Below, piece after piece: positions 1 through 60,047 of a stretch of DNA of 64,000 nt. Position 1 is the stretch's first letter. Every line of letters starts with the position of its first letter. The notes beneath the pieces were generated by a model. That model was given only the letters and a program-made list of their open reading frames with translations, was not told the origin of the DNA and ran no database searches. The stretch is from the IMG/VR virus record IMGVR_UViG_3300042946_000615, positions 7,663 to 71,662 of that record. One strand, written 5' to 3'. The stretch comes from a virus. Both the position numbers and the translations under genes were made by a program.

Positions 1-3000
1 TGGCTTTCCGTCAAAATCACAGCCAGAACCAACGCAAGATACTGAACTGATTGATATGATGCTTCCTTTATTAGTATATAGCGAAGTCAATGACGATGTT
101 GGTGTTGATGCGGTATCTGTAGTTTGTCCGCCAACAGGAGGAGTCGTTGTTGTGGTTGTATTGTCAGACAAATTAGTAAAAGACAAAGGAGAGGATGCTA
201 TGCTTCCGTCTCCAATAACTAAGTGATCAACATATAGCCAGCCACTAACCGTTAAGTTGGCAAAAACCTGAGACTGTTGTCCTGTTGTTAGATCTGTTCC
301 AGATGCTAATAATTTAGGTATGCTGCTATTGACCGCAACAGCAGACGATCCGGCCATAGAAGGAGCATCAATAGGTTCATAATATGCTGCTTTATGCCAC
401 TGATGAAGGTCGGGTAGCCAATATTTGGCAGTAGACAATTTTCTTAGAATGAAAGAATCATTACCAATAGCATTAACTCTATATGCTCCATTATTTATGG
501 TGGCATCTACACTAGTATCTAATACTGTTGCTGCGGCTCCATTATTGACCCAGTTTATAAAACGTATAGCAGATATGTAGCTTACAAATACAACTGGCTT
601 ATTGTCCATGTTTGGCTTGGTGCTATAAACATATCCCTGATCGCTAATTCTGAGTATGCCCCCAGATTTTTCACTTGACATTTTACTATTATATAAATTA
701 TAGTTATCGTTGTTTTTAGCGACAGCATTTAAAAATTTACAGTATTGACTATTAGTAATTTCATATTTGCTGATTCTATAAGAAGTATTAACCAATCCTA
801 ATCTTGGTATAACTTGTTTAATTGTGCTTGATCCTAATTTAATATTCAACCCATCGCCATCCGGAATGTTCGCTGTGTTTCCTACTAGCGAAAAAGATAA
901 TTGCAATCCACTAACATTATTTGTAACGGTAGATAGATCAGTAACTCCATATGAACTTGCTAATCTAAATCCAACACTCTCAAAACATCCTGACCTTGGC
1001 AATAATTCCATTCCCTTTAATCCGCTTACACTAGTAGTTAAATAAGAACCTCCGGCAGCATATTCTTCACTATCTGAAAACTCAATTTGATTTGGTTTTT
1101 CTATCCATTCTGCGGCATTTCCATTTTGATCATATGTGCCATAAAAGGACGGAGTTCCATTACTTCCAACGCTAGACAAAACTCCAGAGAATAAATTACG
1201 ATCTGTAGTATTATCATAATAATAATTTGCTGATGAATATCCATTAGATATACCAGATCCATTTCCACTAAGAACAACAATTGGGAAAATATCATTTCTG
1301 CGTGTAGCAAAACTATAATATTTGCCTGATGGAACAGATACTCTTCCTGTATTCGCCTTGATTAAAAGAGCTGGTTCTTCGTTAGTTCCATAAACCTCAA
1401 AATTAATATCTTTCTTACCAGTATTAAATACTGTGTCTTTTGATGGTCTTATGCTAAGAATATTAGACGATGAGTCATTAATGATCCCATCTGGAACACT
1501 GGTTTGAATAGTTAAATATCCACCCTTAGTTACTGAATAAACGTCAACAGAGGTAATATCTGCATTGGATAATGGCTCATCAATTAATAAACCATTAATA
1601 TTATCTCCAGACAAGTCAATCTCTGTAACATATCTATAATATGTTGATCCAGAAGATGACAGAGCTATCTGATCTCCTAATGTAAATTCAGTACTAGATA
1701 AGGGCGAAGAGAATGTTACTTGTCTTAAACAGATACTGGCTGTTCTATTGTCAAACTTATCCCAAACTATACTTTGTTCAGTTAGAAAATAATCATCTAG
1801 GCTATATATACCAGTTATACTACCGTTACTTGTTGTGCTTAATAACTTATTACCTGGAACGGATATTCTTAGTGAGCCACCATCGGTTAATGATACTGAC
1901 CCGGCTACTACTTTACCAGAAGGATTAACAGTTAATATACTGCTGGGAGATATATTAGGAATAGTTATATTATCTGTTCGTATATTTGCAATAATAGTGC
2001 CTGTTGATGATATCCCGACAGAATTCAACGTAATACTTGGAGCGGTTACCACTACAGCATTTGTATCAACGCTAATATTAGCATTGCTGTTTGATAACAC
2101 TGACGAACCGCCATTTGTTAAAACTAATTTTTGATTTGAATAACCCAGAGTTGTAGAATCAGTATTGCTGTTTAGGGTTTTAATCTCTGATCCACCAGAT
2201 ATTACAACAATATCCACAGCTCCCTTCTCTGATCCTGATGCTACGACCAATGCTCTAGCCTCTATTCTTCCATAATTTTTTTCAACACCGACAGAGTTTT
2301 TGGCTGCTAAATTAATTTGTGAAATTTTAGTATCATTAGGAATATCTGCTATGGGCTTATGAAACAGTGTTATATTTGCTGGATAGCATTGTGATCTATT
2401 TTCTAATCTGATGCCTTGTTGGCAGCCCGTATTTACTATGTGAAATAAAGTTAATGGTCTTGATCCTGTTGGTATATTTAATCCTATGCGACCATCATAT
2501 GCAAAAAAGAAATTTCTATCCTTCGTACCACTACCGTATACTAAAAAATCGCTACTATAATTAAGATTATTAACTATAAAAGGATATAATCCACTAGTTG
2601 GAATAATGGTATCTGCTAAGGACTCAGAGTTTCCTCCTATGAAAACTCTTTTTGAAGGAGCGTCCCAGTATATATCTGATGTATTGATTTGGTCACTAAG
2701 AATTGAAAAAGTATCAGGATCACCATTCGTTGATTGAGCTTGTATTTTTTCTGGAGGAGCACTATTTAGTACTACCCAATCCTGTCGAGTTGAGGCTAGT
2801 CTAACATAATTATTTGATGAGCTGAGTGTGCATGCTATGGATTGATTATCTTTTTTGATGCATAAGGAGCCGTCTCGACTTAGTAGTTTAAATTCAATAA
2901 TGAGATTATCAGCTTGTGATACTGGGGGCAAAGTGACATTAACATCTTGTGCTGAGTCAACAACATATAATGCGCTTACTGGATCTAGGCGACAATCTTT

Positions 3001-3348
3001 ATCAATAACAACTGTATTATTTAATCCCTTATCAAATGAACTCTGATTAGCAAAAATAAAAAACTCATTACCTGAGTTGGGGAAATCATTAAATTTATTA
3101 CCATTAGAAGATTTAATTATTTGTTTTCTTTTAACCAAAATAATACCATCAACAACTATTACCTCTCCAACTCCAGCTTCATATATTTGCTTACTATTAT
3201 TTCTAGCTATATACGGTATGTCATAACCAATATGATGATTTTCTAATAAGCTAAAATTATTAATTTCAGATAAAGGTTGTATATATCCGTCTTTATTAAG
3301 AAGAAATTTAAATCCTATATTATCAAAAACTCTAATTAAGTTACTCAT
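1..3348 (-). CDS. Large virion/tail protein with a circularly permuted FGE-sulfatase (C-type lectin fold) domain; 3' end lies beyond the window edge
   Basis: ATG at 3348 overlaps the TMP stop (ATGA). It is missing from the ORF track, consistent with no stop before position 1 (>1116 aa; spot-checked in frame). Begins MSNLIRVFDNIG; YEAGVG...R..I.KSSNGN is a fibre-type N-terminus. FGE motifs GTYDQNGNAAEW, VGFRLAS, KYEITNSQY, WHKAAYY. Confidence 0.8.
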   Translation of the reverse strand, partial: MSNLIRVFDNIGFKFLLNKDGYIQPLSEINNFSLLENHHIGYDIPYIARNNSKQIYEAGVGEVIVVDGIILVKRKQIIKSSNGNKFNDFPNSGNEFFIFANQSSFDKGLNNTVVIDKDCRLDPVSALYVVDSAQDVNVTLPPVSQADNLIIEFKLLSRDGSLCIKKDNQSIACTLSSSNNYVRLASTRQDWVVLNSAPPEKIQAQSTNGDPDTFSILSDQINTSDIYWDAPSKRVFIGGNSESLADTIIPTSGLYPFIVNNLNYSSDFLVYGSGTKDRNFFFAYDGRIGLNIPTGSRPLTLFHIVNTGCQQGIRLENRSQCYPANITLFHKPIADIPNDTKISQINLAAKNSVGVEKNYGRIEARALVVASGSEKGAVDIVVISGGSEIKTLNSNTDSTTLGYSNQKLVLTNGGSSVLSNSNANISVDTNAVVVTAPSITLNSVGISSTGTIIANIRTDNITIPNISPSSILTVNPSGKVVAGSVSLTDGGSLRISVPGNKLLSTTSNGSITGIYSLDDYFLTEQSIVWDKFDNRTASICLRQVTFSSPLSSTEFTLGDQIALSSSGSTYYRYVTEIDLSGDNINGLLIDEPLSNADITSVDVYSVTKGGYLTIQTSVPDGIINDSSSNILSIRPSKDTVFNTGKKDINFEVYGTNEEPALLIKANTGRVSVPSGKYYSFATRRNDIFPIVVLSGNGSGISNGYSSANYYYDNTTDRNLFSGVLSSVGSNGTPSFYGTYDQNGNAAEWIEKPNQIEFSDSEEYAAGGSYLTTSVSGLKGMELLPRSGCFESVGFRLASSYGVTDLSTVTNNVSGLQLSFSLVGNTANIPDGDGLNIKLGSSTIKQVIPRLGLVNTSYRISKYEITNSQYCKFLNAVAKNNDNYNLYNSKMSSEKSGGILRISDQGYVYSTKPNMDNKPVVFVSYISAIRFINWVNNGAAATVLDTSVDATINNGAYRVNAIGNDSFILRKLSTAKYWLPDLHQWHKAAYYEPIDAPSMAGSSAVAVNSSIPKLLASGTDLTTGQQSQVFANLTVSGWLYVDHLVIGDGSIASSPLSFTNLSDNTTTTTTPPVGGQTTDTASTPTSSLTSLYTNKGSIISISSVSCVGSGCDFDGKP

Positions 3349-6300
3349 TTAATTGATTTTCCCATTATGGAAGTTGTGTCAGGACCAAATATGCCGCTAT
3401 CTAATTGACCTGGACCCTTGTTTATTTTGTTAAATGCGTTGTTTAGCTGGTTATTTGTTTGTTGTTCCATTGATGGACCCAGTGTAGAAAGGACATTGTT
3501 GGCTGCTTCAGCACCGTTGAATCTGTGTTCGCTTGTAACGTTTCCGGTAAGTTTTATACTATCTGGTAAACTTACAGTACTAAGTTTATCAGCATATGAT
3601 CCCAAGTTTGTTGTGGAGCTCTTTAATCCGTCAACTAATGATTGTGATTGTGATCCGAAATTATCAATAAATCCGGTCATATTTTGATTTAATTGATTAA
3701 TTTGAGATATCTTATCTTCCAAAGAACTAGACATTGACTGTACTATCTTATTTAAAGCAGACTCTATGTCTCCAATGTTAGAACTATTATTAGATACACC
3801 AGGGGCTTGTTTGATAGCATTCGAAAGTTGTTGTCCTCCATCGGCATAATATTTGGGTGCAACAACTCCACCATTGGCCAAATAATTAACAATTCCACCT
3901 CTATTAAAGTGGCCACTATTAATAGCATTAAGGAGAGGCATATGCTTTTGGCTAGATTCTCTATTGACTACAAATTCTCCAGGAGTCAACATGGCTGGCA
4001 CATTATCTGTACCAGAAGCTGCTTGAGCTAATGCTCCATTATTAGCATAAATTAATCCCCCAGTATTATGATGACTTGCTTCATGTCTTTTGTTTGGATC
4101 ACTAGTTACTTTTTGTACAAGTTCTGCTTTATGAAAAGGTTCAATAGTGCTTTTAGCAATTGTATGACCCGTGTGCTCACCCAAATGAGTATATTTATTT
4201 CTTAGTGTTGGCATTCCAAGATCATAAACGCTTTTAATATTAGAAGGCCTATTGCTAGCCAAAGCGCCAGCATCATGAATAGCTACTGTTGATGTCATGG
4301 TTTCTCTAGCCACACTACCTCCTCCCAAAGGAACCTCAATAGTTGGAACCATATCAGGATCAAATATTTTGCTCGTAGGATTTTTTGAGACTTGAATTCC
4401 AAAGTCTTTTATTACAGCTTGTGATGCTAGTTTTGGATCCAGACCCTTACTCGTAAGTCTAGTAGTTTCAGCATTAATAATAGTGCTTGGCTCTAGAGTT
4501 CCCATAGCTGCTTGCTTTACCATATTAGGATCAGCAGATAGCGTGGGACTCTTCTCAACCATTTGTCGTACCGTACTAGCAGAGTCTTTTGCACTTCCAA
4601 GCGTTGCTGTAGCATTATCTAATGCTCCTGGTACCATATCAGCTGTCATTACCTGTGCTGCTTTAGAACCAACTTGTTGAGCATTAGGAAGTGCATATCT
4701 GCTAACAGCAGCTCCAACATCAGCTGATTTTTCTCCTGTTAATGCGTAACTACCTGGCCCGCTATTTCCTGGCCAAAAGAACTTGCCATTACTCTCCGTG
4801 GCTCTCCAAACATCTGGACCTAATACTTCTATTGGTTTGCCTGTGGCAGTGTCGATTGCTGCTTCCACCATAGGAGATACTCCAGCTTGTCCTCCTGATA
4901 GTGTTCGGCTTCCTGCTATACCTTCTCCGTGTCTCCACCATTCCGCAGTTTCTGCTGCTGCGCCAGGAGCAACAGGAGCTGGTCTAACTGAGCTTAAAAC
5001 AGAATTACCTTTTGAAGCAATCTGAGCTTCAGCATGCATTTTTCCTGCTGCTGTAGTAAAATTAGCGATATCCTCTGCGGTTTGTGTTCCGTGAGTAAAA
5101 GGGTCTCTACGGGCATAACTAAGAGTTTCTGCTCCTTGTATTCCCAAATCTGTAACCTTACCAGCTGTTTTGGCTGCCAAAGGAATAGGATCAGCAGCTA
5201 AATTAAATGCACCTTCTCCAACTATTGGAGCAAGACGTTGAACTGTTCCAGCAGCAGTTCCAAACTCATCTGTAACTTGCGCCACTTGACTATCCATAAT
5301 CTCATTAGCAGCAGCAGTGGCTTCTGCTCTTTGTTTTTCATAAACTCCTCCAGATAAATAATCTAGCCCTAGTCCTTGTCCAGCCATAGCTCCGCCAGCT
5401 GCTATATTTGCTGCGCCTAAATCTCCCGTTTGTTGACCGCTTTTAGATAATCCACCAAAAAATCCATCATCGCTAGCACCTAAACCTTGTCCAATATCTC
5501 CAACCATCATACCAGCACCACCAGCGGCTATTTGCATAGCTCCATAACCGGACTTACCAATACCTCCTAATACTTGCATTGGTGGAAGTTCTGCTACAGT
5601 ATGTAGAGCGTGTGGTATGTCTTGTTGAACTTGCTGTAAAGCTAATTGATTAGCGCTATTTGCTGCCATTTCATTAGCAAGATCTCCTTGTGCTCTTGCT
5701 ATCTCCATATCATTAATATTAGCATAATCATTATTTGATGATATACCCATCATATCATTTACATTATTTAGCATAGCTTGTCCAGCTGCGGCATCATAAG
5801 CGCTAATTTGTGGACTTTGTTGTGGCTCAAGTCTCATATCCTTAAATGGGTCATTAGCTGGATCTGCTTGTGTGATAGGACGAATATCTGGTGCTTTTTG
5901 TTCATCATCTGTTCTTCCGCCTGTAGCTAAATATTTTACTGGATTTTCTCGCTTATATTGAAGAATATAGTCCACTCCTTTGTCCATCCATGCTTTTTCA
6001 TCATCAGAAATAGGCATAGGCTTCGGTTTCAGGGGCAGATAACCGGGACCGTCGTAAATAGTAGAACTGGGACCGTCTGGGAAAAAAATGTCTTGCATTG
6101 CCTTTTTTTGTTGTATAGTATTTCTCTTAATTCCTTCAATAAACCATCTAGTTTGTGCAAGTTCATTTTCCTTAGCCGCCCATTCCTCAGGTGGTGGATT
6201 TCTAATGTCATATGGCTTGCCATATACTCGACTCTTATCAGGAGCTTTACGCTTGGTTTTTTTATTAGTTTTCGTCTTACCTCCTTTACTTAAATAATTT

Positions 6301-9300
6301 ATCTCACCTCCTTTACTTTTGTTAATAGCATGTAAAAGTCCCAAATTCTCCTTTGTTGATTTTGCATTAACAACAAACTCGCCAGGAGTTAGCATAGCAG
6401 GAACAGTATCAGTACCCTTTGGTGAAAAATCAATTAATTGTCCATTTTCAGCATATATCAATCCTCCACTAGCTCTTCTGGCTGGTTTTTTAGTCTTGGT
6501 TTTTTCTTTTTGAGGAGATGTTACAGCTTTTACTCCTGACGATATGAGCTGAGCACCTCCAGCAAGAACCGCTCCCTTTTTTATAAGATCTGTTGTTGAT
6601 GATTTGGTGTCTGGAGCAGATGGTAATGGGGTCGTGGGATCTTTATTTAATAAGCTATTATATTTACTTAACTCTTTTACATAGCTAGGATTATCTAATG
6701 GTTTCTGACCCAAAGATCTTGCAACAGCTGCTTCTTCTTGAACTCTCGCTAGCGCATTATTAACGGCTACATCTTGTGGTACTTGTGCTTTAGTACCTCG
6801 AATATCCATTCTGGCTTGTGTAAATTCGTCCATTGCTGAGATTCTTGGCCCGGCGCCTTCGGCTAATACTCTGAATTTTTTAGGTAGTTTTGATATAACT
6901 CCTTTTGTTAATAAGTTTTGATCGTCTAATATCCCTAATATTCTGGATACTGCATGACTTTGTTCATGTAAAGCAGCAAATGTGTCTGTTGGACTTCTTA
7001 GTACTGTTGTGCCAGTGACAGATCCTGGGGCGTCTGGTCTAAAGTAACCTCTACGATTTAATGCTGGATTAATACTAGTAGGTGTCGCCTCGGCTAATTG
7101 TTGAATTCTTTTTGCGACTACTGCTTCTCCCTTGGGAGTTAATCTTTGTGGACTGCTATAGCTTGTTGTTCCTGGCTTTAAGTCGAGCATTTCTGGCGCA
7201 AGAGCTTTGGCTGCTCTTGCGTTTAGTGTTGTGGCATCACCTCCTCCTGTTCCGAATTCTGTTCCTCTCATTGCTCCTTTCTCTATTGCTGAGCTAGCCT
7301 TTGCAATAACTGAATCTTTTCCTCTTTTAACTTCTTTGCCAATATTTTGCCATAGTCTCGCCTCTTCTGCGTCATTAAGCTTTTCAGTTATATTATATCT
7401 GGATTCGTCTAAAGCTTGTTTCATATCTTTATCTATTGCTGATTCTGCTTTAGTTTGTTCTGTTGTCATTTGTCTTTGCGATTTTTGTCCACCAAGAATA
7501 CCTTGTCCTCTACCACTGAGTTGTTCAGCAGTTCTGGCGCTATTTGCCATAGAAGCTATTCCTGCCGTTATCTGAATAAGATCAACAGCATCTTGTGGAG
7601 TGGATTCTCCCTTAATAACTCTTCCAGCAATATCAGGAACTTTTCTAAGAGATGCTCCAGCCGTTACTACTCCAACAGGAGTAAGCATACTAGCAGCAGC
7701 AACTCCAACAGCTGTTATATCTTCTGGTTCAGATGTTCTTAAATAGTTTGTTCCATCGGCAAATAAAACATTACCATTTTTATCAGAATACTGTATAGGA
7801 CCATGTTTCTGGATCATTTCTTCTAAATCTTGTTCTTTTTGGATTTTATTCAAGGTTTGAATAGAAGATGCTCCGGTTCCTCCTTGGGCAAAAATTACAG
7901 GCGGAACACCACCACTATCTCTCCATAAAGTATCTTTTGTCTTAGACTCTAAAGAAGCAAACATTTCTGCGTCCGTTAGTGGACCGGCCAACATAGGATC
8001 CACACCAAGTGCCACAGCATCTTCTTTAGTTAGTTTAGCTTGTGTTTTAGTATCTTGAGATCTATCTCTAGAAGCTTCGAATCTGTTTCTAGCTGATAAT
8101 CTAGCAACATTTTTTCCGTCTGCACTAATTTCCAGACCAGCTGTGTGTCTTTCAGATCCGTCAAGTTTAAAGCCTGTTACATAGTCCACTAGTCCTGCCA
8201 TAAAATTAGAAACCGCCTCGGCTCTTTCTTTAACTCTTTTTGTTCTGTCTGAGCCTATCATTTCTGGCGGCAATGTAGCATCGAATACTTCTGAACCAAA
8301 TAACTTGGGTTTATCGGCACCGTATTTTTTAAATAAGTCTCTAGCTTTTTTAGCTTCAAAATAATCTTCAGCATTTTTATAAGACTCACGAGCCCAGCGC
8401 TCTCCGTCTGGCTTATTAACACCTCTGCCAAGTCCTATTGGATTTAACCCAGCACTGGCCCTGCCAGTAGAACCAAACTCAACCTGAGCATGTCTTAATT
8501 GCTGTAGTCGTTTCTCTCTTTCGTTATCGCTTATGCCTTCTTCTTGAGAATGTTGTCTATATACGTCTATAATTTTTTTGCCTTCATCTATGGCAAATTG
8601 TACTTTTCTTGCAGACTCTTCTGCTGTTCCTGCCCTAGAAGAAGTTGCTTGCTGAGCAACAACCGTTGCTTGTGCTTCTTTATTAGCTGTTGACTGAGTT
8701 ACGGAAGGTGCCAAAGGCTGCTGTGTCTGAACAGGTTGTGATTTTGTTGTATTAACCGGTGACGTTCCGGAAGATGTATTAAGTGGTTTGCCATCTTTAT
8801 CCAGACCCATTACATTTAGTTTCACTTGAGCAATCTGTCTAACTATTGCTGCTTCTCCTCTAGGATCATTAGCCAAAGTCACATAATGCTGTGGTTCCAT
8901 TTTGCTGTAATCTATATCTAATAGTTGGTCGCTAATTGTTCCATCAATATGTGGATATCCAGCATTAGTGGGTTTTACAGGAGTAGTCGGTACGGTCATT
9001 CCTGATGGTGTTGTTTTATCCGCAAGTAAGTCTGGCCAAGATGGAGATTTAGCAATAACATTATTCACATAATCTTTGATTTGACTTGCGTATCTAGGAT
9101 TAGATGGTGATACAACTTGTGGATCTGTTAAAGATGATGATGTTGTGATTGTTTCTGAAGCTAGGGTGGGTTTTGGTAATTGGCCATTAATCGCTTCAGC
9201 CCTTGCTCTGCTTTTGTATGAGGGGTTTCTATAATCATATTCATTTTCGCCCTTATCATAATCGTGGCGACTAATATTTCCGTTTTTGTCTAAGCGGAAT

Positions 9301-12300
9301 GGCTCGGTATTATTGGCCATCCACTGCTTCATTATTGTTGGTCCAAGAGCCGTTGCGGCAAGAGTCCATCTATTTACATAGTCGTTAGCGTCTTGAATCG
9401 GACCCATAGAAGATGCGAATCGGTTCATTAATCCTGTTACACGAGCATTAGCATCTTCTATTGCTGCTTCTTGAGCAGCATTGGGGTCTGCTGCTGAATC
9501 TGCTTTTTTAGTTTTTGATTTACCTTTACGCTCTTCATATAATGATCTTAATTTTGTATATTCTGATTCTTCCTCAGGAGTTCTTCCTTTTGATCCCTTG
9601 AGCCATAGTTGTTTTCTTCTGTTGTCTTCTGTGCGAGATTGTGCTGCTGCAACTTGTGTAGAAGCTTTGGCTCCAACAGCAGTTGATTGTGGAGTAGAGG
9701 GTTCTTTTTCTTGTGCTGGATCTAGTCCTAGCCTTTCTCTTCTGTATTGGTCCTGTCTTTGATATATGTATCTATTATTTTCATTAAGTCTTGCTTGTCT
9801 TTCGGTAATTTTTTTAGCCTTACTTGCTTCAATTGGATTCTCTTTGGTCCATTTTTGCCTTAGTGACTGATATTCTTCTTCTTCGCCTTGTGTTCGTTTG
9901 GCTTTTCCTTTCATATTTAAATTCATCCTTCTTATAGACTCTTGCTTTCGTCTAATTTCAGGATTTAAAACTCTTTGCTCTTCTCTGAGATTTTGATATT
10001 CTATTTCTTCTTCTGGAGTTCTTTTGGCTTTTCCTTTAATATTTAAATTCAGTCTTCTAAAACTATTTTTTTGTTGTCTGATTTCTTCTGCTCTCAATGT
10101 ATCAGATTTTAATTGTGATGATAGTATTTCGTTATAATTTTTATATTCGCTTTCCTCTGAGAATGTTCTCTTATCTGCTTTGTTTTTAAGTTGATCGTAC
10201 CTCTTATTATGAAATGTTCCTGCTTTATTTAACAAACGAAGTAATTTAGCTCTATTCTGTACTTTGTTTCCATATTCTAAAAATTCATTTATATCTATCG
10301 CTTTATCTTTATTTAAATCAAAATCAGAAAAATAGTCCAAAAATTCATTTTCAGATAATATACTATTTTGATCTTTATCAAATCCTCTAAATAACGATGC
10401 TAATCCACCATCTTTAAAATATTTAACTTTGCCACCATTAGCATATCCATTATTAATAGCTTCTAATAGTGGTAAATTTTGGGCTGTAGATTTAGCATTG
10501 ATAACAAACTCTCCCGGACTAAGCATTGCTGGTATAGTATCAGTTCCCTTTGGTTTAAAGTCTATCATCTGTCCTTCAGCGGCATATATTAAGCCTCCAC
10601 GACTAGCCGTAATAGCAGCCTGATTCTGATACTGTTCGCCAAGATCAGTAGTCCCAAGATTAAGTTGAATTGTTTTTGCTCCAGAACTATCTCTTCCTTC
10701 TATTGTGTCATTTCTTGAAAAAGAGTCTGCTAATTGATTTTTTAGGTCAATTATTGCTACAGTAAGATTATCCATAGCGAACACATTAAGTTCCATGGCC
10801 TGAACTTCTCTTAACTTAGCTTGTTCCTCTGTTGCTGCTTTCTGTAAGCCAGCAGCTTCTAGTACCTGATTAGCCGCGGCTTGAGCCATTGGTTCAGACT
10901 CAGGGTTCATCTTTGTTTGGATGGCTTGCATAACAACAGGATTATTTGCAAAGCCACTCTCAATGGCCATTTGTTGCATCATTTTGCCTTCTTGCTGTCT
11001 AAACATATTGTCTAGATCAGCTTCGCTAAGTAATCCTTGTCCAGCAGTTGCTCGTTGATTTTGTATTTGACCCTTGATTATTGCCTTAAACCCAGGATCT
11101 TGCATCAAGCCTAGAGTTTCTTTTCTTTGATTAGCTAGAACAGTATTTCCTGCTCTATATGCTTCTCTCATGCTTCCTGTTTTAAATAGTGCTTCATTAA
11201 ATGCTTTTCTTGCATCTCTTTGATTCCATGGACTATTTAATCCACCAGATAAATTTCGCTGAAGTCTAATAAATGCTTGATTTAAATTGTCTGCTTCTTC
11301 TGGAGTATTTGTTAATAATTTCTCAACAAAAGACTGTCTATCTTTTTGTGTTTCAGCAACATTCTTAGCTTCTTGTAAAGCTCTCTCATACATATTAGTA
11401 CTATTAGCTAATTTATCTAAAGCATCATTATAGTTTTTGATCTTGTCGCTACTGTCTTGTATGTCTTGAGTAAATTGTATAACATCATTAAAGTCTTTAT
11501 TTAGTAATGCGTCATCTCTTTGTTTTACAAGTCCGGTGTTGGGATCATTTATACGATCTGATTCTTGTCTTATCGCTTGGGCAATAGCAACAGGATCGGT
11601 TATTCCTCCTGTCATTTGTGCAACTTCATTTAGAGTTTGACCCTTTGCTTCATTATAGCTTTCTCCAACATCTCTAAAGATTTCTCTAGTATCAATATTC
11701 GCTTTATACATGATTTTATCAGCTTTGCGACGAAGCTCGGTTGATTGTCTAATATAGTCTGAGCTTTGTTGTAAAGACTTTGCAAAATCATTAAGACCAT
11801 TTTGTCTAAACTCAAGCATTGCTTTTGCAGCGTCTGTTGCTTTGCGAGCTAGTCCCTCGCCAAGTGCGGATGAAGACGTTCTGATCTGATCCAAGAATAT
11901 TTCTAATGCTACTTTGCGATTATTAGCTAATCCCTCGTCGCTAATTTTTTCAGATGCATTTTTTACGTATGCTTCTAGCTGACTATTTAATTTTTCTTTG
12001 GTTTCATTATCTAGACCAGAAGAATTGATAATACCCTGTCCAACAGATAAAGCCTGGGCCGAAGCGTCCTCTTTAGTTAATGATGCTTCTGTACTAAGAC
12101 GATCAGCTATCGCTTTGGTCATAACATCTGGCAAAGATTTACTAAAATTAATCATACTTTCAATATTTTTGCCTTCTTTTCCTCCTATTAAATCGGCGGC
12201 TTTGCCAACAGCCAATGCAAAATCTTGTGGGGTATATGCCTGAGGATTTTCTAAAATATTAAGTTCTGGTATATTTATTTCTGGAGGGCCAGATTCACCA

Positions 12301-15300
12301 GTAAGTCCCTTTATACGAGATTGTGCGTACTTGGTTCTTTGTTGTGACTCATACTGAATTCTATTAATTGACTGATTAATACTATCAATCATGCGATCAA
12401 AACTAACAGCCAACTGTCTGCCTGCTCTGTCAGCGGCCTCCATAGCCTTAGCAAGGTCATTAGCCTTAATAATCGTATCTAATATAACATTTCCTTGTTC
12501 ATAATAATCTTTTGTAACTTTCTTAAGAACTTCATCTAATTCGCCCTCTGTTAGCTCTCTGCCTCCCACCGCACTTGATGCTGAGGCCATAGCGGCATTA
12601 AATGCAGCAACTCCCTTAACATCAGACATTAATAAGCCAGCTCTTTCATTTGTATATTTATCTCCTGATATTATGTCTTCTCTTGTTGCTCCCTGACTAA
12701 GTGCTGACATTATAGCTTGTTGAGCAATGGCTCCTGTTTCTTTATTCTTAGATGCCATTTCAGCATTTATTCTTGCCATTTCTTGAGCGCCCATAGTTTC
12801 TCTACTAGCGCCTAATCCTGTAAAGGTTGGCATAACAGAAGCTATCATATTGCCAAGAGTTTCATTGATATATTGAAGACCAGTTGCTTTGGATGGCGTC
12901 ATACCAGCAATAGGCGACTGTCTACCAAAATCTAATTTAGCTTCTCTGAGCTGAAATTGAGCATCGCTAACTGATATATTATTAACATCTTTTAATGCAT
13001 CTGAAAGATTATTTCTAAGATCAGTATTTCCAACATTTGTTTCATATTCTTTAGCTGATCTATTTAGTCTTTCCATTGCTGCATCTAATTGTACCGCTCT
13101 ATTCTCTGACTGCTGTTGTCTTCTTGCTTCTGCTTGAGATCCACTAATATCACTAAAATATTCTGCCAGACCATATAGCGTCGAACCTATTGCCACAATA
13201 GAAGCAGCTATAACTCCAGCTTTGCCAGGAACATTGGCTAATATTTCTGCCGCAGTAGCAAGTCCTGTACTGATAATGATTCCTGAGCTTTCAATAGCTG
13301 CTGATGTTTCAGCTGATTTGATTTTTGCATCATTGTTCTGTTGTCCATATAATAATCTTCCTATGTTTTTGCCCTGACCAGCAACAAGTCCTGTCGCTAT
13401 AGAAGCTCCTCCAAGAACCTGTGGAGCACTTAGTGATTTGATATATTTTAATATTGGACTATTATTAAAGTCCATCATATCAATAGCTCCTACTCCCTTC
13501 TGGCCAGTTCTGGAAGCTAAATCGTTTATTAATGAACGTCTAACAGAAATTTCTCGTCTTGTTTCTTTTTCCAGTTCTTTAATCATTCTTTGTTGCTGTT
13601 TTGATCCGACACTAGCAAATTGAGATGATCTTTTGAGTTCAGCCATTTTTTGAGCAGCGTACTCTTTGTCAAGTTCAGTTAGTGTTTTTCTGTCTCTTTT
13701 GGACTCGTTTATATATTCTTTGATATCTTTACCACTTATATCAAAATCAGAAAAAGATTTTTGGCTGACTCCAGACACCTTAGATGCTGCAATTTTATAA
13801 GCTTTATCTGTAAGCTTTGACAAATCAACATCTTTACCAGATGCTCTAAGTTTTTGAGTCGCTCCAGATATTATATACTGTGCTTCTTTCTCAATCATTT
13901 CTTGAGCAGCGGCTGATCCTTGATTAATATCTCCCATCATCATTTTTCCACCCATAAATTGGGCAGTAGCGCTTCCTCTTTGAGAAAAAGCTCCTTCTAG
14001 ATTTCTCTTAAGGTCAACATCTCTTTTTCCTTGCCTTCTAATTTGATATAGAGCCTCTTCTGCACGAATTATAGTATCAAATCCTGCACCAGCAGTTTTT
14101 AGCTTATCTAAATCACCAGATAAGGCTTTTTCTACTTCTTTATAACTAACTTCACTAGAATTTCTAAGCTTTTTAATAACGGTTGCTGATTGAGCAGCAC
14201 TAAATCCTAGTTTATTAATGCCCTCAATCAGATCCTCTAATACCTTTGGAACATCTTTATTAATTTGAGTAGAAGCTCTTCCAATTATATCTGGTCTTCT
14301 GTCAAAACGTTTAACTTGATTATTTTTTGGTTGTTCTGTAAACCATTGTCCAAATTTACGAATAAAAGAGTTAGGATCAGCAAACCCGCCGCCAGCAAGT
14401 TTTTGAAAAGTCCCAACAACTCCGCCCTTGTTATAACCCTGAACTTTATCAGCTTTATTTAATTTATGTAAATTGCTATATCCTATTTTTTGAGCAGCAT
14501 CCTTATTAACAACAAATTCTCCAGGAGTTAATAGTGCCGGTACAGTATCTTTGGGTGATCCGCCTTTGGCGAATTTTTCGGTAATCCATCCGGTATCATT
14601 TATATTTTTTTGTCTAGTAAAAATCTGTGCCAGTACTGGCTTTAGCGGATCTTTACCAACATATTTTAATCCCTGCTTTGGTTTTAGGTTATTAAAGAAA
14701 CTATTCTCAAACTCCTCATAAAAATCAGGATCAGAATGCATTAGAGATTTTACTAGTGAACTTAATACTTCTCCTGATCTAGCATCTCCAGAATTATTAT
14801 TTGCAAGTAGTTTTTCAGCATCTTTACCCTGATCCTTAAAGGATATTCCCATTTTTCTCATCATGGTATTATCTGTTGTGTCTAAATATTCATCATATTT
14901 TTTATCTAATGAAAAATCTTTTAGATTAGTACCTAGATCAACACCTTTAGATTTTGCAATAGCTTCTTTTACTCTATCGTAATTAGCATGAATAAAATTA
15001 ACAATATCAGCATTTTGGAATTCATAATCTAAATCCCAGTTTTTACCATCTAATAATTCTGTAAACTTTAAAGCCATTGGCCTACCATTAGGATCAGCCG
15101 CTGTTAAAAAGTTTGCACCTCCCTCTAGCTCCATTGCTCTTAACATAGCAGATGTTGGATCAGAATAAACATAAAATCCATGTCCCTGTCCGAATCCGTG
15201 AGACACATCGGACTTGGCCCCATACTTTTTAAAGCTTTCTAAAACACTATCATCTTTACCTGTTGTTGTACCATGCCAAATGTCTCTGATAACTCCACCA

Positions 15301-18300
15301 GCTTTATATTTTTTGGGTAATGTCTTATAGAACTCTGGGTTTAATCCACTGTCTTGAAACATATTACCAAGGATTGAATTTGCTCCTTTATTACCAACTG
15401 CTGATGCCGATATGAGTACTGGTACTACTTCTAAGCGACCTAAATCATACTGTGACTCTCCTATTGATCCAAGTATTCCGTTAGATAGATTAGAAAGATT
15501 TTTTTTTGTCTTTTTCTTAACTGATTCTATAGCTAATAAAGAAGTGTCTGGTCCATAGGGTGAATTAGATTTACCTGGTATCGGAAAGAAGTGCTCAGGT
15601 TTATAATCCTTTGGTCCGGCCCACTCAGCATTAGCTGGATCATTATACCATTTAATTATATCGTCTTTATATTTTTCTGCTGATACTTGTAATTTATCTA
15701 TAATCTCTGGATGATTATCATATAAATATCCTTGAATATCATGAAAAGTTTCGTGAGCAAGAACTCCTTTGTGTTTTCCTCCAGCTGTCTTAATAATATC
15801 TTCGCCGCCTTGAAATAGTAGATTCTCATCTATAAAAGTTTTTAATGCACGATACTCATCGTCTGGTATAGTTTTTTTATTTTTTTCTAACCTATGTCTC
15901 ATGGTTTTATAATGCAAACCACCCTGATAAAATGCTCCTGTTTGTTCTTCTGGTGGAACTTGTTCACTCTTGCCTAAAAGTATTGACATCATTGTGCTTC
16001 TACTTTTTTCAGCAAGAGTTCTTGGTGGTATAAATTCAATAGGTTCTGCTTGTCCTGATGGCATTTTAAGATAGCCGTCAGACGTTAACATTTCTTTTGG
16101 TAAAATACTTGCAAGTATTTGTTTATACTCTTCTTCAACTTTTCCACCTTTAGCAAACTTATAATGTATCGCTTCGTGCCCCTGACCCTTCAATCGCGTT
16201 ATTGTTTCTAAATTATCGTCAATCATCTTTTGATAACCGGTAATCTTCTTATTTTGAGGACCGTCTGATCCTCTTATTTTTGATACGGGAATAGGCAGCC
16301 CTAATCTTGACAAGGTATCAGCCAATATTCCTGCTTGATTCTGATTTCTGGCTGAAAGTATACTAATGTTATCAACAAGAGAAGGTTCCTGTTTGATTGC
16401 TTCGGATAAGTGTTGTCCTAGTGGGGTTAACTTTCCTTTTTTTAGCATCTGCTCAACTAGTGGAATATTATCTTTTTGAGATAAGTCTAATGAACCGTCT
16501 GGTTTTCTAATTTCTCCACCGGTAACTAGAGTATCATCAAAATCAAAAACCATTTCTTTAAATGGGCCGGTCGAGTTATTGTTTGGGAATATTTCTCCAT
16601 ACTTTTTAAGTAGTCCTCCGCCCGATAATTTCTGAACCATCTTATCGTTCTTTGGTTCTGGGATTCCATATTGTGCTCTAAAATATCTTTGAAATTCTTC
16701 AACAGCCTTGCCTCTACTACCACTGTCTATTGTTCTTTTAACCTCTGTGGGAATATCAGGATCGATACCAAATATTTTTGCTGCTTTAGGTCCGATGCCC
16801 ATTGGGAAGTCTATTGGACGAGTTCTTAAAGCGTCGTCTAATATTGTGGCATCTGCTGATCCAAAAATTTGTTCTAGTAAAGCGCCTTCAATATTGCCCT
16901 GACCTAATGTTTCTCTTTGTTTTTTACTTAATTTTTTTGGAGTAATTCCAAGAAGCTTAGATGCTCCACCGACAATTTCTTCTGTTTGACCACTAAGATA
17001 ATCAATGACATTTTGATACTGTGTTGGTAATCCTCTCTGAACTATTGATGCGTCTATTGATCTTTCTTGGCCAGATGGATCGATTCCAAGATTCCAAGTT
17101 TCTGGCCCTAGTAATCCAGTATATCCTAATGGATTTAATCCAACCAACCCTAACTGTTTGGAAGATAACACAGCATTAGTTGTATCTTCTAGGGCTGTAG
17201 CCCTTTGAATTCCTTGTGATTCATTAAATTTATCTATTAGGTAGTCTCTTGTTGCAGTATAGTAGGCGAGTTTATCTGCTTTTGTTTCTGGTCTAAAAGC
17301 AGAATTCCAATATTTTAGTTTTCCACCATCAGCAGTATCTCTTACTGTTTTTCCTGAGAATGGACCAAAACTAGCGTCTGTCGGCAATCTTGATGTTCCA
17401 AATCTTTTTAGAATCTCTGATCCTTGTGCTGGTAATATTCCGGAGGACTTTTTGACCTGGGTAGTCTTTTCTACATTTTTTAGTATTGCAGCTTCTAGTC
17501 CAGAAGGCATCGCTGTTGGAACTCCACCAAACTCACCACTCATCTGTTCTGAAAGTTGTGCTGCTATAGTCTCTCTTGTTATGTCTGATGGCTGTGCAGA
17601 TACGGAGGATTTTCTTGATGGATCTAGTCCATAAATTTCTGGATATTTAGCAGATAGTGCTCTGATAATGTTGAATGCTCTATAACCAAAGGCTCCTCTG
17701 GACGCTCTATCTCTTTGACTTCTGATGTCTTGAATTTGACCAGCTATTTCTGGAGCATTTTGCTTTAGCTTAGCATTGACATTACCATAGGGGCCACCAG
17801 GGGCAGATGCTAGTAATCCACTAATCTCCGCATTAGATTTTGCTTTGTCTTGATCAACAAATTTTTGTATTTCTTCAATCAGCATGGGAACCATCGTGCT
17901 ACGATTTCTTAACTGTGCTCTGTTACCCATGAGAATCGATGCTACTTCAGGATTAAGAAAACTAGTTAATGTTTTATCATCACCAGAAAATAACGCGTCT
18001 CTAACTTTAGTGGCACTGATATCTTCTATTCTTGGAATATCTTTAACATTCATTCCTGCTCTCTCATATTTACCAAGAACACCTTCTTCTTTTCCTGATG
18101 TTATAGCCATAGCTCCTTTTAATTTAGCAAATCTTCTTCTGTCTCCGCTTCCAGCAATTTCCATAAATTTTGACAAACCGCCAGCAGGCTGGTCTTGGGT
18201 ACTAATCTGCGCATTTCCAAAGTTTATTTTACTTAATAGAGCTCTAAAATCTGCTGGGAAAATACCATATCGTGCAGCGTGTTCTATTCCTTCTTTACCG

Positions 18301-21300
18301 GCGATCATAGGAAGATCCGGAGCAACGCTCACAACAATATCTTCTAAAGAAGAGTTTGGATTTTTAGCTAACATATTATCCAATAGAGTATCTAGTGCTC
18401 CACGATGACCCCTGGTAGGAGGAGCAAAGCCTCCTGTATAAAATCCACCAGCTTGAACTATTTCTGGCAATTCATTTTCTCTTTTACGTCTTAAGCCAAA
18501 ACTGTCTTTTTTTCTTCCTAGTACAGTTGCCCTTTTGCCTAACTCATCTCTTAATATAGTCTCTTCTAAACCAAAATCAGAATTAGCACCGACTGTAGTA
18601 CCTGGTTTACGACCGTATAATCCTTCTCCAGTAAGATCTCTACTACTTCTATTTGACCTTACTCTGTCTTGTTCATCTCTACTATTAGAGCTTAATATAT
18701 ATGCTCTATCAACATCTTTTAAATAAGAATCTAATTTAGTTTGACTAGCTGTTGAAGTTAGTACAAAAACCTCATTAACTTTTTCTATATCCTCAGGTGT
18801 TAATATTTGAGAGCGAGTTGTTTTTCTCAAAGTAGCATCATCATTAGCTCCCTTACCAGTTGCCACACTACTTTTTCCACTTCCAGCAGCCCCAGCAATA
18901 GCCATGAATTTTGATAGTGATTTATTTTTTCGTGCTTTAGCAGCCAACTCTCCGAGTCTTGTTGTGTAATCACTAACATCAGTGATTCCAAGCTTTTCCA
19001 TTGCTGGTCTAACCACTGTTGCATTAGCTGCGTCTCTTAGGACATCTGTATCAATTATACCAATATTCCTTAAAACTTGTCCACCGCGAGCAAATTTTTG
19101 AATTTTTCCGCCTCTAGCAAGTTCTAATTTGCCAGACTCATTCCATTTTCTTCCTGTTGTCAAAGAAGAATCCATAGTAAATCCGCTTGCTAAGTACCGA
19201 CCAAATCCACCACCAACCTTTATCTTACTCGTATCTTTAAAATCAGCTATCTGTGTTTGTAGTGCTTTTGTACCTTCTTCGGCAGCTTTAGATGCTGTCA
19301 TATCGTTTGAGACATAATAATCTGATGGAATGACGAATCCGCTTGGTCCTTGTTTTGGTTTTCTTTTATTTTTATTTTTTTGTATATCTAATAAATTTAC
19401 AGCTTTGGCTTCAGATACTCTACTGGTTTTATTACCAATTTCATAGGTATCAAAATCAGCAATTCTAAAACTAGCAGTAAAGGGTTTTCCTGTGGGGGTA
19501 ACTGTAGCAGTAAATGTATCTCCATCCGTGGCCTTTTGATCTCCGTCTATACTTGCTACTTCTGCTGCTCCTCCTTTAGCAAATTTTTTCCTTTTACCTG
19601 CTCTTCCGCCACTCCTAATACTTCCACCACCACCATACTTATTTATATTATGAAGATTATTTGATCCAATAGTTTCAACAGCTTTCTTTCTTATAACAAA
19701 TTCTCCTGGCATTAACATAGCAGGAACAGTATCTCTATTTCCTGATCCTGGAACAACGCCACCTCTGGCAAACTTACGAACAGGGCCGCCATCTGCAAAT
19801 GGTTCTGATCTACCAGATCCCTTTTTATTATCTGGTCCTCCTCTGAACCCCTTATTAAATCCACCAGCAAATTGAGTTAATGCTTTTGCTCCTTTAAAAG
19901 CAAGCATAACGCTTAATGCAGGAAGTAGAGTTTTGCTAGCATCTGCAACCTTTATTAAAGCTCCAGATAATGACAACGCTCCTTTAACCAGCGTTTGGAA
20001 TCCTTGACTTTGGCCTAGTTCTCTGAATAGTGCAAAAAATTGTTCTCTAACTTTGCTAATTTGATTAGCCAAAGAGAGTTGTGCTTTTACAGCATCTCTG
20101 GCTAGCGAACCTTGTCCTTGTTGGGCCACTGCCAAAGCCTCTTGAGCTACTGAAAATTGTTGGATTAACGGAATAACCTTACCGATTTGTCGGAATCCAC
20201 CAAGTTCTTCAACAATTCTAGAAAATTTTAAGTCTCTTGGATCAATAGAATTTAATCCTTCGCTTAATAACTGTACCGCTTTATAGGCTCCAACGAATTT
20301 ACCCTGAGCATCAGTTAAATTAACACCAAACTCCTTTAGAGCATTAATTGTATCTCCTCGCTGCACGCGAGTAAAAATAGTTCTTAATCCAGTAGCAATA
20401 GTTTCTGCACTTTCACGAGTAGTTGCTCTAACGCTAGTAAACACAGCAATAAATTCATTAAGAGCATCAGTTCCGGTACTAACTCCTTTACTGGCTGTTG
20501 CAAACACTCCACCGGTACGCTGAATGGCTGCTATAATATCACTAGCTTCAACAGCGAATTTAGCAGCAACGGTATTTACTGAGCCGAGTGCTGATTCTAA
20601 TTCACCAGCGCCTATGCCGAACTGTCTCATTAAAGCGATACTGCCTTCTACCGTTTCGTTCATACTGTCGAATGAAGGGGCTAAACTACTTAATGCTAAA
20701 GCTTTTAATGATCGTTCTGTGTCTTTTGCGCTCAATCCTGCCTGAGCTAAAGTTACAGCTACTGTTGTTAACTCTTTTGAACTAACGCCCAAAGAAGTGG
20801 ATAAATCAGTAATTCTTGATTGTAATTGTGTTAGTCCTTTTAGTGACTGACCAGTAACTTGTTGTAATCTAACTAATTCCTTATCATATTCTATAAAAGC
20901 CTGAACACCCTTACTAATACTATTAGTCAAACCATAAATAACACTGGTTACGGTAGCAAATGCAGTAAATCTTCTAACTGCTAATCCGGCCTGCTTACCG
21001 AAATCTTCCATCTCGTTAGTAACGCTAGAAAATGATGATTTTGCTTTGGTTGCATTGTTATTTAAAGTGGATACTGATTTACTAATATTATTAACTTGTT
21101 GTGGAATATTATTAAGCTTAACAGAATTAACCGATTGACCAAGCATCTTTATTGCAGAGGCGGCTGATGATGCGGACTTATTAGTTGCTGATAGTGTAGA
21201 ATTTAATTTTTGTAATGCTGATGTTAGTGCTGTTACGTTTTTTGTTGCTGTTGGATCTAACTTAAAATTAACAGTAGCATTAACATTGCCAAGATCTTTC

Positions 21301-21478: not shown

Positions 21479-22396
21479 TCAGGCTGTTGCTGGCTGTTCA
21501 ACTTTCGGTTCTGCCACTGGTGCTGGTGCTGGTACTTCAACAGCTGGCTGACTTTCTTTGGTTTCTGAACTAGCAGCTTTTGGTTCATCTTTTTTGTCTT
21601 CTTCTAAAATAATTGGGTTTCCACTATCATCTAAGAAGGGTTGAGGATCAACGAGATAATCACCGTCTGAATTTACCTTATTGCCATACTTATCTACGAA
21701 GTTACCTTCTTCGTCTATAAATCTACCGCTCTCGTCGATCAACCTACCTTCTGCATCAATTAATCTGCCTTTTTTATCAACTAAACGTAATTTTTCATCA
21801 ACAAATTTATATTTCTTTAAAAACTTGTTTTCTGGTAAATTACTCTCGTAGTCATTATCCAAACCATAAAGCATATTAGCCAAATTTTGTGCTCCTAATA
21901 ATCCAACAGAATCTGTTGACCTATTAAGGTAGTCTTCCATATTGTTGAAATATGGCTGTTTAGTATCATTATACACCACACAAACACCAACTAAATAATT
22001 AAATCTAGCATTATCAGCCTGTCCTTCAGCACTATGATTGTCTAAGGAGGTTCTAACACTGATCAAATCTCTTATTTCATCTCTAACGGTCTTCATTTGA
22101 ATAGCAAGGTCTTTAGCCTCATTTAAACTAAATCCACCCTTAGCTAGTCTCTTCTCTCCATCTAGCAATTCTTTTTGCAGAGTGGTGAACTTGGCCTGTT
22201 TCTCATCATTCCACAACCCTTGATCTTCAAGAAGATCGTCTAGCTTAGCCCTTACCACGCTCTTGCTTTTAATAGCATCGGTGAAAGCCTGATTATAAAC
22301 TTTTTGAGCTTCTCTTTGGTCGTTAAGCGATGGTGTCTTAACAAGAAATTCTTTTTCAACACCGTCGATAGTTGCCTTAAATGTTTTAGTCTTCAT
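21479..22396 (-). CDS. Putative tail assembly chaperone
   Basis: Immediately upstream of the TMP. GGAG RBS before MKTKTF at 22396. Helical, with short VD.xGR/xF repeats and a Pro/Ala/Glu tail; paralogous to 22699-23742. Confidence 0.6.
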   Translation of the reverse strand: MKTKTFKATIDGVEKEFLVKTPSLNDQREAQKVYNQAFTDAIKSKSVVRAKLDDLLEDQGLWNDEKQAKFTTLQKELLDGEKRLAKGGFSLNEAKDLAIQMKTVRDEIRDLISVRTSLDNHSAEGQADNARFNYLVGVCVVYNDTKQPYFNNMEDYLNRSTDSVGLLGAQNLANMLYGLDNDYESNLPENKFLKKYKFVDEKLRLVDKKGRLIDAEGRLIDESGRFIDEEGNFVDKYGNKVNSDGDYLVDPQPFLDDSGNPIILEEDKKDEPKAASSETKESQPAVEVPAPAPVAEPKVEQPATA

Positions 22397-58886: not shown

Positions 58887-58973
58887 ATTTTTTCCTTGCT
58901 CTAAACTGATCAAACCTTATTATAGTATGTTTTGGGGCGAGATTGTCAACAAATTAAAAGATAGGAGCGATTT

Positions 58974-60004: not shown

Positions 60005-60047
60005 GAAAAAACGTAAAAGCATTTGCATAAATCGAAAGTTTTTCCGC

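Follow-up and report, generated by a model that had tools for sequence, protein, structure and literature searches.

A recurrent [FY]xxGG joint between exchangeable cassettes of a giant phage tape measure protein, and the case for reading it as a candidate maturation site

Introduction

What purpose is served by a short peptide motif that recurs along one very long phage protein? The question is raised by a window of viral DNA, that is, the whole stretch of 64,000 nucleotides (nt) analysed here (positions 7,663 to 71,662 of IMG/VR record IMGVR_UViG_3300042946_000615, a viral record of 71.6 kb with an estimated completeness of 48%). On the minus strand at 3345..21380, the window carries a single open frame of 6011 amino acids (aa; P0001), and the protein that it encodes is a TP901-type tail tape measure protein (TMP). 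PF10145 matches the N-terminus of the protein with E 1.7e-21 and 77.5 bits (cut-off 33.2), TIGR01760 matches residues 148-478 (19947..20939) with E 1.1e-27 and 97 bits (cut-off 28.8), and several TMP families match it in the PHROG comparison. A first-pass annotation pointed out that motifs of the form [FYL]xxGG cluster at domain junctions of this protein and are rare inside domains, and proposed that they are either protease processing sites or recombination-friendly junctions for swapping cargo. Below, the motif is analysed across the family to which the TMP belongs. All features of the TMP lie on the minus strand of the window, and residue i of the protein begins at window base 21380-3(i-1).

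The family is large and its giant members are all metagenomic. TMP residues 1-620 are shared, at 53-98% identity, by at least 604 proteins of 3300-7900 aa that came up in a word-index search. A scan of IMG/VR with a conserved stretch of 126 aa led to 325 viral contigs, while a single 660-aa query led to none. The main comparison set consists of 120 giant relatives (121 family members with the window protein), all 120 of which keep the N-terminal domain. Cultured phages, SPbeta-like and others, show only a distant likeness to the N-terminus, at 22-26% identity, and no cultured phage matched 22 kb of the window at the nucleotide level in megablast.

Enrichment and consensus of the motif

The expression [FYL]..GG matches the TMP 26 times, against 6.33±2.47 times in residue shuffles, none of 2000 of which reaches 26. 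In the same number of shuffles, [FY]..GG is expected 2.61 times and seen 18 times, and [FY]A.GG is expected 0.28 times and seen 9 times. The 17 instances listed in the first-pass annotation were all recovered. By window base, FADGG is found at 19799, KFARGG at 19772 and 19094, KFAKGG at 19583, 16157 and 14573, LARGG at 19121, KLSGGG at 16628, KYKAGG at 15308, GYNKGG at 14435, KLAGGG at 14399, GYANGG at 10445, YFKDGG at 10418, YLSKGG at 6293, YLATGG at 5930, HFNRGG at 3908, YLANGG at 3881 and YYADGG at 3848.

The excess is a trait of the family. The 121 giant TMPs contain a mean of 20.2 motifs (5.6 expected), and 27 proteins that bear the module described below and have no N-terminal similarity to the window TMP contain 204 (36.5 expected). 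Within the window, the motif is restricted to the TMP; in the other 33 minus-strand open reading frames (ORFs), which total 13,132 aa, it occurs at chance level (7 seen, 7.4 expected). Over 241 proteins the consensus is [G/K/Y/R]-[F/Y]-[A/S/N]-x-G-G-x-V, with [KRG]-[FY]-[ASN]-x-G-G-x-[VI] as the family form. Three residues before GG, Phe is enriched 3.8-fold and Tyr 4.3-fold family-wide, while Leu, at 1.13-fold, is not enriched. Val stands two residues after GG in 42% of cases, an 8.4-fold enrichment, and tandem copies favour a spacing of 9 residues (477 cases).

These numbers bear on one form of the processing-site proposal, in which the motif would be a Gly-Gly code in the manner of adenovirus and African swine fever virus (ASFV) and would be recognised by the prohead protease or by some other protease of general use in the virion. 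Adenovirus polyproteins (Met, Ile or Leu at P4 of xGG-X) and ASFV polyproteins are cut after GG, and GG is the one feature that the motif shares with them. P4 of the motif, however, is Ala in 34%, Ser in 13% and Asn in 12%, and the hydrophobic or aromatic residue stands at P5. The chance-level counts in the other 33 ORFs likewise speak against a general virion code. The ORF named as prohead protease (49738-51285, minus strand) has no PHROG or Pfam match at E<=1e-3, and HExxH, the motif of the other proposed enzymes, occurs in 63 of the 121 family members and is absent from 58. Given the mismatch at P4, the restriction of the motif to the TMP and the failure to find a protease, we rank this explanation last and consider it very improbable.

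Coincidence of the motif with exchange boundaries

The TMP is a mosaic, in which cassettes come, go and re-order independently between relatives. In BLASTP comparisons with the 120 relatives, residues 1-600, 3001-3650, about 4950-5050 and about 5750-6011 are found in approximately 100-120 of them, whereas the stretches between are found in 2-71. The six cassettes of the N-terminal half, c1 to c6, are present in 32, 71, 49, 47, 18 and 30 of the 120, and their co-occurrence is only partial.

The same comparison provides a test of the junctions that is free of domain naming, in which internal endpoints of high-scoring segment pairs (HSPs) serve as boundaries. Of 2908 such endpoints, 44.2% have one of the 26 motif sites within 10 aa. 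For 26 random sites the figure is 8.5%; the highest value in the random trials was 34.1%, and 0 of 2000 trials reached 44.2%. Eighteen of the 26 sites lie on homology breakpoints with at least 24 endpoints each. The remaining eight (residues 984, 1622, 1821, 1859, 4501, 4713, 5155 and 5345) lie inside cassettes with 0-1 endpoints, and their number is close to the chance expectation of about six. The earlier observation that the motifs cluster at junctions and are rare inside is thus borne out. Motifs at such junctions are termed joints below.

Paralogous matches between modules inflate endpoint counts, and a filter for HSPs of at least 120 aa removes them. With 40 other family members as queries, 34.8% of 113,309 endpoints are near a motif (5.2% expected) before this filter and 27.7% of 41,037 (5.1% expected) after it. 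Coverage steps or endpoint peaks coincide with motifs at residues 529, 609, 761, 1590, 1746, 2027, 2265, 2329, 3659, 5040 and 5844, and further endpoint peaks, at 3588, 4965 and 5767, mark the xGGLIYA starts of three modules. The motif also recurs at cassette ends in the relatives: for c6 upstream in 25 of 30 and downstream in 18 of 30, for c1 in 27 and 19 of 32, and for c2 upstream in 62 of 71. The HAD-like cassette (c4) is a counter-example, since in relatives it mostly has no motif at its ends: one lies within 25 aa in only 11 of 47 upstream and 4 of 47 downstream.

A repeated module related to lambda gpH

Five segments of the TMP align as one module of about 70 aa with a DTVPAML-PGEFV core. 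Its parts follow one another in the order xGG(LIYAxxG...), DT[VI]PA[ML]L.PGEFV, a short helix, [FY]xxGG and again [FY]xxGG. Of the 18 junction motifs, 13 belong to the five modules, and five, at residues 754, 763, 1585, 1742 and 2025, are free-standing. The first module, M1 (residues 528-604; 19569..19799), comprises FADGG, KFARGG, the core DTVPAMLMPGEFV, KYGGGG and KFAKGG; it has breakpoints at 529 and 609, and PHROG matches cover 530-612. M2 (residues 2270-2332; 14385..14573), with KFAKGG, DTVPALLTPGEFV, GYNKGG and KLAGGG, is found in about 100 of the 120 relatives. M3 (residues 3591-3659; 10404..10610) starts with SRGGLIYA and continues with DTIPAMLSPGEFV, GYANGG and YFKDGG, where coverage falls from 119 to 50 at residue 3659. 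M4 (residues 4966-5034; 6279..6485), composed of ASGGLIYA, DTVPAMLTPGEFV, SKGG and YLSKGG, stands out sharply from its surroundings, as coverage rises from 42 to 119 at 4965 and drops from 119 to 21 at 5040. At M5 (residues 5766-5849; 3834..4085), which runs from NTGGLIYA through DNVPAMLTPGEFV to HFNRGG, YLANGG and YYADGG, coverage returns from 21 to 119 at 5767.

The module extends far beyond the giant family. By tblastn it was found in the TMPs of 130 cultured-phage records, at 132 places and almost always once per record, and PHROG TMP families match it near their C-termini. Dinoroseobacter phage R5C, Brevundimonas phage MaInes and phages of Gordonia and Mycobacterium smegmatis are examples of these cultured carriers. 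A profile search at E<=1e-3 recovered the module from 14,810 representative proteins, and one protein can have as many as 14 copies. No Pfam (E<=10) or NCBIfam model matches any of the five modules, and a sequence search of the PDB gave no solved structure resembling the module.

In hhalign, residues 731-784 of lambda gpH match the module profile (106 sequences) with a probability of 94.3% and E 1e-7 over 53 columns, and on this sequence comparison the module is homologous to that part of gpH. M5 is its positional equivalent. FATGG (733-737) and YATGG (778-782) of gpH, with GEFVF between them, occupy the places of the joints, and the overall order (a Gly-rich hydrophobic stretch, FATGG, the GEFV core with its helix, YATGG and the tip-binding C-terminus) is the same. 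Pfam Tape_meas_lam_C spans gpH 627-701, upstream of the module. The two proteins differ in that gpH has one module and no cargo, whereas the window TMP combines five modules with five free joints and about eleven cassettes. T5 pb2 was also considered as a homologue of the module and was rejected, its hhalign probability being 0.8%.

All 13 complete shorter TMPs (13/13) end with the module and a conserved C-terminal region. Fission of the gene at joints was looked for and none was seen; in 67 of 80 loci the ORF reaches the end of the locus. The motif is probably a joint that forms the conserved end of an old tape-measure module, often in tandem.

Conservation at the peptide level and structure models

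At orthologous joints GG is close to invariant. The paired counts are 25/25 and 25/25, 60/60 and 56/60, 116/117 and 116/117, and, for the double joint LARGG/FARGG, 47/47 and 44/47; examples for the first Gly are 25/25, 60/60, 116/117 and 119/119. The third position of the motif varies freely at the same sites. Among 17 joints of the window, on the other hand, synonymous codons vary (GGC GGC, GGT GGA and GGA GGA for the glycines; GCA, GCC and GCT for Ala), and one joint is at most 18 nt long. Because codons vary while GG is near-invariant, and because the joint is so short, selection acts on the peptide and not on a DNA signal. The proposal of recombination-friendly junctions for swapping cargo therefore holds in so far as the joints mark the ends of exchanged units, and finds no support as regards a signal at the level of DNA.

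The same data help to weigh the possibility that the joint is a by-product of cassette acquisition, with unequal or illegitimate recombination between modules leaving fragments that would be tolerated only as linkers. The location of 13 of the 18 junction motifs within five modules agrees with this possibility, as does the permuted order of cassettes between relatives. The modules, moreover, recur up to 14 times per protein and, being present in about 100-119 of 120 relatives, are the best conserved of the anchors that separate variable regions. Yet the five free-standing joints, which lack the module core, still keep GG almost invariant at orthologous sites, and the synonymous codon differences between joints imply that these are old and held by peptide selection. 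Moreover, a sequence of at most 18 nt is too short to guide homologous exchange. In our opinion this origin is unlikely.

For AlphaFold2 (AF2) models, co-extensive alignments were used as input: 15 sequences for cassette c6 with M2 (residues 2022-2345) and 106 sequences for M3. In the first model, c6 has a pLDDT (the per-residue confidence of AF2) of 60-88, while the upstream joint, the downstream joint and M2 stay below 50. The first strand of the c6 model starts one residue after GG, and the Val after GG belongs to that strand. The M3 model has a mean pLDDT of 62.6 and a predicted template modelling score (pTM) of 0.28; only the part with PGEFV and the helix reaches about 82-84, and the joints on either side are modelled as coil with values of 51-56. 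As modelled, the module is not an autonomous globular domain. A complex model of three copies of the module scored 0.02 against a mark of 0.42 and bears neither way on oligomerisation.

Such properties would also suit a joint that is never cut. The aromatic-A-x-G-G-x-V peptide could act as a hinge or tight turn, or it could be a short linear motif that docks on a partner, for instance the tail assembly chaperone, the tube lumen or a second TMP chain. In either case the TMP would remain whole, and the joint would let unrelated cassettes thread and pack in the lumen. The near-invariant GG with hydrophobic residues on both sides ([FY] at -3, Val or Ile at +2), the 9-residue tandem spacing, the placement of Val in the first strand of the c6 model and the confinement of the motif to the TMP all accord with this. 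So does the fact that the motif is integral to a widespread module, which single-module TMPs of cultured phages also carry. The module is not a self-contained fold in the model, which is what one would expect if it folds on a partner. Conversely, no partner has been identified, the PDB holds no relative by sequence, and the region is unresolved in lambda (PMC12617516). The spacing of joints, irregular and set by the cassettes, speaks against a periodic contact with the tube, and both lambda gpH and T5 pb2 are cut close to this region. We regard an uncut hinge or docking motif as a real possibility, though not as the leading one; the 9-residue periodicity, the Val after GG and the presence of several copies in each module suggest a structural role, which places it close behind cleavage.

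Proposed maturation cleavage at the joints

The explanation that we prefer, if only tentatively, is that the joints are maturation cleavage sites of the TMP; here we infer the occurrence of a cut as well as the cutting enzyme and the cut bond. The TMP of this uncultured clade of large siphophages has turned into a carrier of many cassettes, several of them enzyme-like, and the five modules and five free-standing joints bracket cassettes that are gained, lost and re-ordered independently. After assembly of the tail, the TMP would be cut at or beside the joints. The cargo, the segments of the ruler and the C-terminal piece bound to the tip would then pass out of the tail before the DNA, each as a polypeptide of its own.

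Four considerations lead us to favour cleavage. The first is the polyprotein-like layout, in which a short motif flanks exchangeable units and recurs at the same cassette ends in relatives. The second is the constraint at the peptide level, with GG near-invariant at orthologous joints while the codons differ. The third is flexibility, as joints and modules have low AF2 confidence (pLDDT from below 50 to 56) beside a folded cassette. The fourth is provided by precedents, namely lambda gpH, T5 pb2, the Tal protein of TP901-1 and the polyvalent proteins. As at maturation sites of tail proteins, a Gly-rich motif is found at the junction of a structural part with an enzymatic or terminal part.

Lambda and T5 TMPs are the only ones shown to be cut, according to PMC12617516, which places the lambda cut, whose products are gpH* and gpHC, in a Gly-rich region near the module and gives gpH* a mass of about 78 kDa, corresponding to about residue 710. 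Calculated masses of gpH are 77.7 kDa to residue 710 and 79.8 kDa to residue 733, values with which a link between the cut and the motif is consistent. By the estimate, gpH* ends about 20 residues before the lambda module; this distance is compatible with a cut at the joint, and we claim nothing beyond that.

T5 pb2 is cut during tail morphogenesis after R1127, between a membrane-inserting hydrophobic stretch and a peptidase motif, so that the enzymatic domain is parted from the rest (PMC10038345). The cut, FVPR/AEGG in the T5 sequence, lies beside A-x-G-G. In contrast to the joints, the site has no [FY] at -3 of GG, and pb2 has no significant match to the module profile. In the Tal protein of TP901-1 and Tuc2009, a siphophage tail protein processed at a Gly-rich junction between the structural part and catalytic domains, processing at NGGGNSGGGD removes the catalytic domains (PMC11409707). 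Tal differs from the present case in that it is not a TMP, its motif lacks an aromatic residue, and it has a single site.

Polyvalent proteins (Iyer et al. 2017) combine many unrelated effector domains (ADP-ribosyltransferases (ARTs), nucleases, zincin peptidases) in one polypeptide delivered with the DNA, and processing by embedded zincins has been proposed for them (PMC5512222). That paper contains 0 mentions of tape measure proteins, whereas here the carrier is the TMP, and a recurrent joint bounds the cassettes.

Two further comparisons concern cargo and its boundaries. Enzymatic segments within a TMP occur in SPbeta YomI-type TMPs (SPbeta-like TMPs being the nearest cultured relatives of the N-terminus), and the TMP of mycobacteriophage TM4 reportedly contains an embedded enzymatic motif. 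These TMPs carry one or two small embedded motifs, in contrast to a dozen exchangeable cassettes with joints. In polymorphic toxins, a short conserved peptide, VENN, precedes the toxin domains of CdiA and marks an exchangeable C-terminal cassette. VENN is a different motif in another secretion context and provides a single junction before one terminal toxin domain.

Several observations weigh against cleavage. No member of the family has a demonstrated cut, and its giant members are known from metagenomes only. No protease was found: besides the patchy occurrence of HExxH and the lack of a family match for ORF 49738-51285, neither Prok-JAB nor NLPC_P60 was detected in the 71.6-kb record, itself 48% complete. 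Even single-module TMPs have 2-4 motifs per module, and cutting at all of them would produce peptides of 9-50 aa, while lambda has only one known cut. The 9-residue periodicity and the Val after GG suggest a structural repeat. In T5, the site departs from [FY]xxGG, and pb2 does not match the module profile. Finally, some cassette boundaries have no motif, among them the boundary of c2 and c3 near residue 1255.

Candidate enzymes were considered and set aside. An embedded zincin is ruled out as the universal processing enzyme by the 58 of 121 members without HExxH; in the window TMP, two HExxH domains (residues 1876 and 4805) match neither a Pfam model nor an MPTase family. A lambda gpK-like JAB or NlpC/P60 enzyme as the GG-specific protease was not found in the incomplete record. 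The TMP contains four HExxH strings in all, and those at residues 1735 (16161-16175, HEAIHYKFAKGG) and 5766 (4068-4082, HEASHHNTGGLIYA) directly precede a joint. The string at 1735 recurs in relatives; both may be coincidental and are not necessarily peptidase sites.

The cleavage explanation can be extended to a general statement, which we hold to be doubtful: [FY]-A-x-G-G would be a maturation signal of siphophage TMPs from lambda gpH to the giants, and the 6011-aa TMP would be a tail-lumen polyprotein. Cuts at about a dozen joints would divide it into ruler segments, a C-terminal piece bound to the tip and as many as ten or so effector enzymes, which would be released separately and reach the cell before the DNA.

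Cassettes of the tape measure protein

Pfam, NCBIfam and PDB sequence searches of all segments returned nothing for the cassettes or the module, and no cassette reached a curated cut-off. The domain names given in the first-pass annotation are borne out only in part.

Cassette c1 (residues 605-757; 19110..19568) is SNase-like by motif only (DGDTF...FR...FDTYE). A Pfam search gave no match in 7 of 7 members, and PF00565 is precomputed on one relative (P0094), at a position that may or may not be that of the cassette. Next comes the free-standing double joint LARGG-KIQK-FARGG (residues 754-767; 19080..19121), where coverage rises from 33 to 71 at residue 761. Cassette c2 (residues 768-1250; 17631..19079), the most widespread, contains a Walker-A-like GAAGSGKS and an HxGH-like GGFAPPTRGH, which suggest a kinase or nucleotidyltransferase; the only Pfam match is HIGH_NTase1_ass (E 0.024). 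Cassette c3 (residues 1260-1584; 16629..17603) has a motif at its downstream end in 40 of the 49 relatives that share it, and is followed by the free-standing joint KLSGGG (residues 1584-1589; 16614..16631), with a breakpoint at 1590 and a fall in coverage from 68 to 48.

Cassette c4 (residues 1590-1741; 16158..16613) is HAD-like, with DFDxT, ..SAR and IDD motifs. In an alignment of 18 sequences D34, F35, D36, T38, D142 and D143 are invariant and the four HAD-type motif positions are kept; Pfam has no match to c4. Relatives share a conserved Lys that falls in a stretch of about 9 residues missing from the window copy. In 13 of 13 relatives' loci inspected (L024, L061, L075 and others), a GQGNIEG...IDFPxGLG domain follows downstream of the HAD-like cassette, and no joints stand between the two. 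The window has the reverse order: the GQGNIEG...IDFPxGLG domain precedes the HAD-like cassette, and joints separate the two.

The free-standing joint KFAKGG (residues 1741-1746; 16143..16160), with a breakpoint at 1746 and a fall in coverage from 34 to 18, leads to cassette c5 (residues 1747-2024; 15309..16142). This cassette has HETFH, an HExxH string, at residue 1876, and an Atlas feature search of it gave only leads, at 0.89-0.90, to peptidase families. The free-standing joint KYKAGG (residues 2024-2029; 15294..15311; breakpoint 2027), in which GG is kept in 25/25 orthologous sites, separates c5 from c6 (residues 2030-2269; 14574..15293). The latter is flanked by [YF]AxGG in relatives and has a possible ADP-ribosyltransferase-like fold: the best Foldseek matches of its model are A subunits of ADP-ribosyltransferase toxins at E 0.03-0.1, and no match was found at E<=1e-3.

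Downstream of M2, a conserved and largely helical ruler core (residues 2333-3590; 10611..14384) is found in 119 of 120 relatives over residues 3001-3590. The variable region between M3 and M4 (residues 3660-4965; 6486..10403; 3-28 of 120 relatives) has an EF-hand-like start, repeats of about 45 aa and HExxH at 4805. The EF-hand-like stretch matches EF-hand_7 at E 0.006, and EF-hand families are precomputed on some relatives. Three of the repeats (..NLNxKGKAKRTxEEExEYxxLR..) follow this stretch at residues 3720-3960, approximately (window about 9500-10220, minus strand). A second variable region (residues 5035-5765; 4086..6278), with YLATGG at 5151, is nearly private to the window phage, being common to 2-4 of 120 relatives. 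The protein closes with a conserved tail-tip end (residues 5850-6011; 3348..3833), present in 83 of 120 relatives at a coverage of at least 60%.

Genome setting

None of the neighbours of the TMP gene, two overlapping ORFs upstream and an ORF of at least 1116 aa downstream, matches a tail family. The upstream pair, of 102 and 313 aa, lies directly before the gene in different frames with an overlap of 35 nt (21479-22694, minus strand); its layout is that of a G/GT-type tail chaperone frameshift pair, and it has no PHROG match at E<=1e-3. The large ORF directly downstream (1-3348, minus strand) runs off the window and contains an FGE-sulfatase-like domain (PF03781, E 8.4e-12), which is unusual at a tail-tip position.

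The structural ORFs of the window phage mostly belong to no recognised family. Large proteins encoded between the head and tail genes, at 31998-33839 and 43710-46538 (minus strand), have a lectin-like domain, Laminin_G_3 (E 3e-32), and an N-terminal motif of lower-baseplate proteins, BppL_N (E 1e-17), and are probably receptor-binding or baseplate parts. At 58700-64000, GC content rises from about 0.35 to 0.44, GC skew becomes positive and the long minus-strand ORFs end, which marks a module boundary of the phage genome.

Significance

TMP cleavage, Gly-rich processing sites, enzymes embedded in TMPs and polyvalent proteins are each already known. New is their combination: in giant TMPs of a very large and uncultured family, exchangeable cassettes are bounded by a recurrent, lambda-related joint. 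In open-access papers and bioRxiv, no description of TMP-borne polyvalent cassettes or of this joint was found.

A structural paper on lambda published in 2025 calls the place and manner of the gpH cut still unknown (PMC12617516). A motif common to lambda and thousands of TMPs offers a concrete site that can be mutated and tested. The joints would also be natural splice points for engineering cargo into phage tails.

In a large uncultured phage clade, the tape measure carries enzyme-like cassettes in modular fashion, with one kind of joint in common. Were these cassettes delivered into the host, the tail lumen would be a route for injected effectors; and if the joints are indeed cleavage signals, swapping of cassettes at them would give each phage its own injected toolkit.

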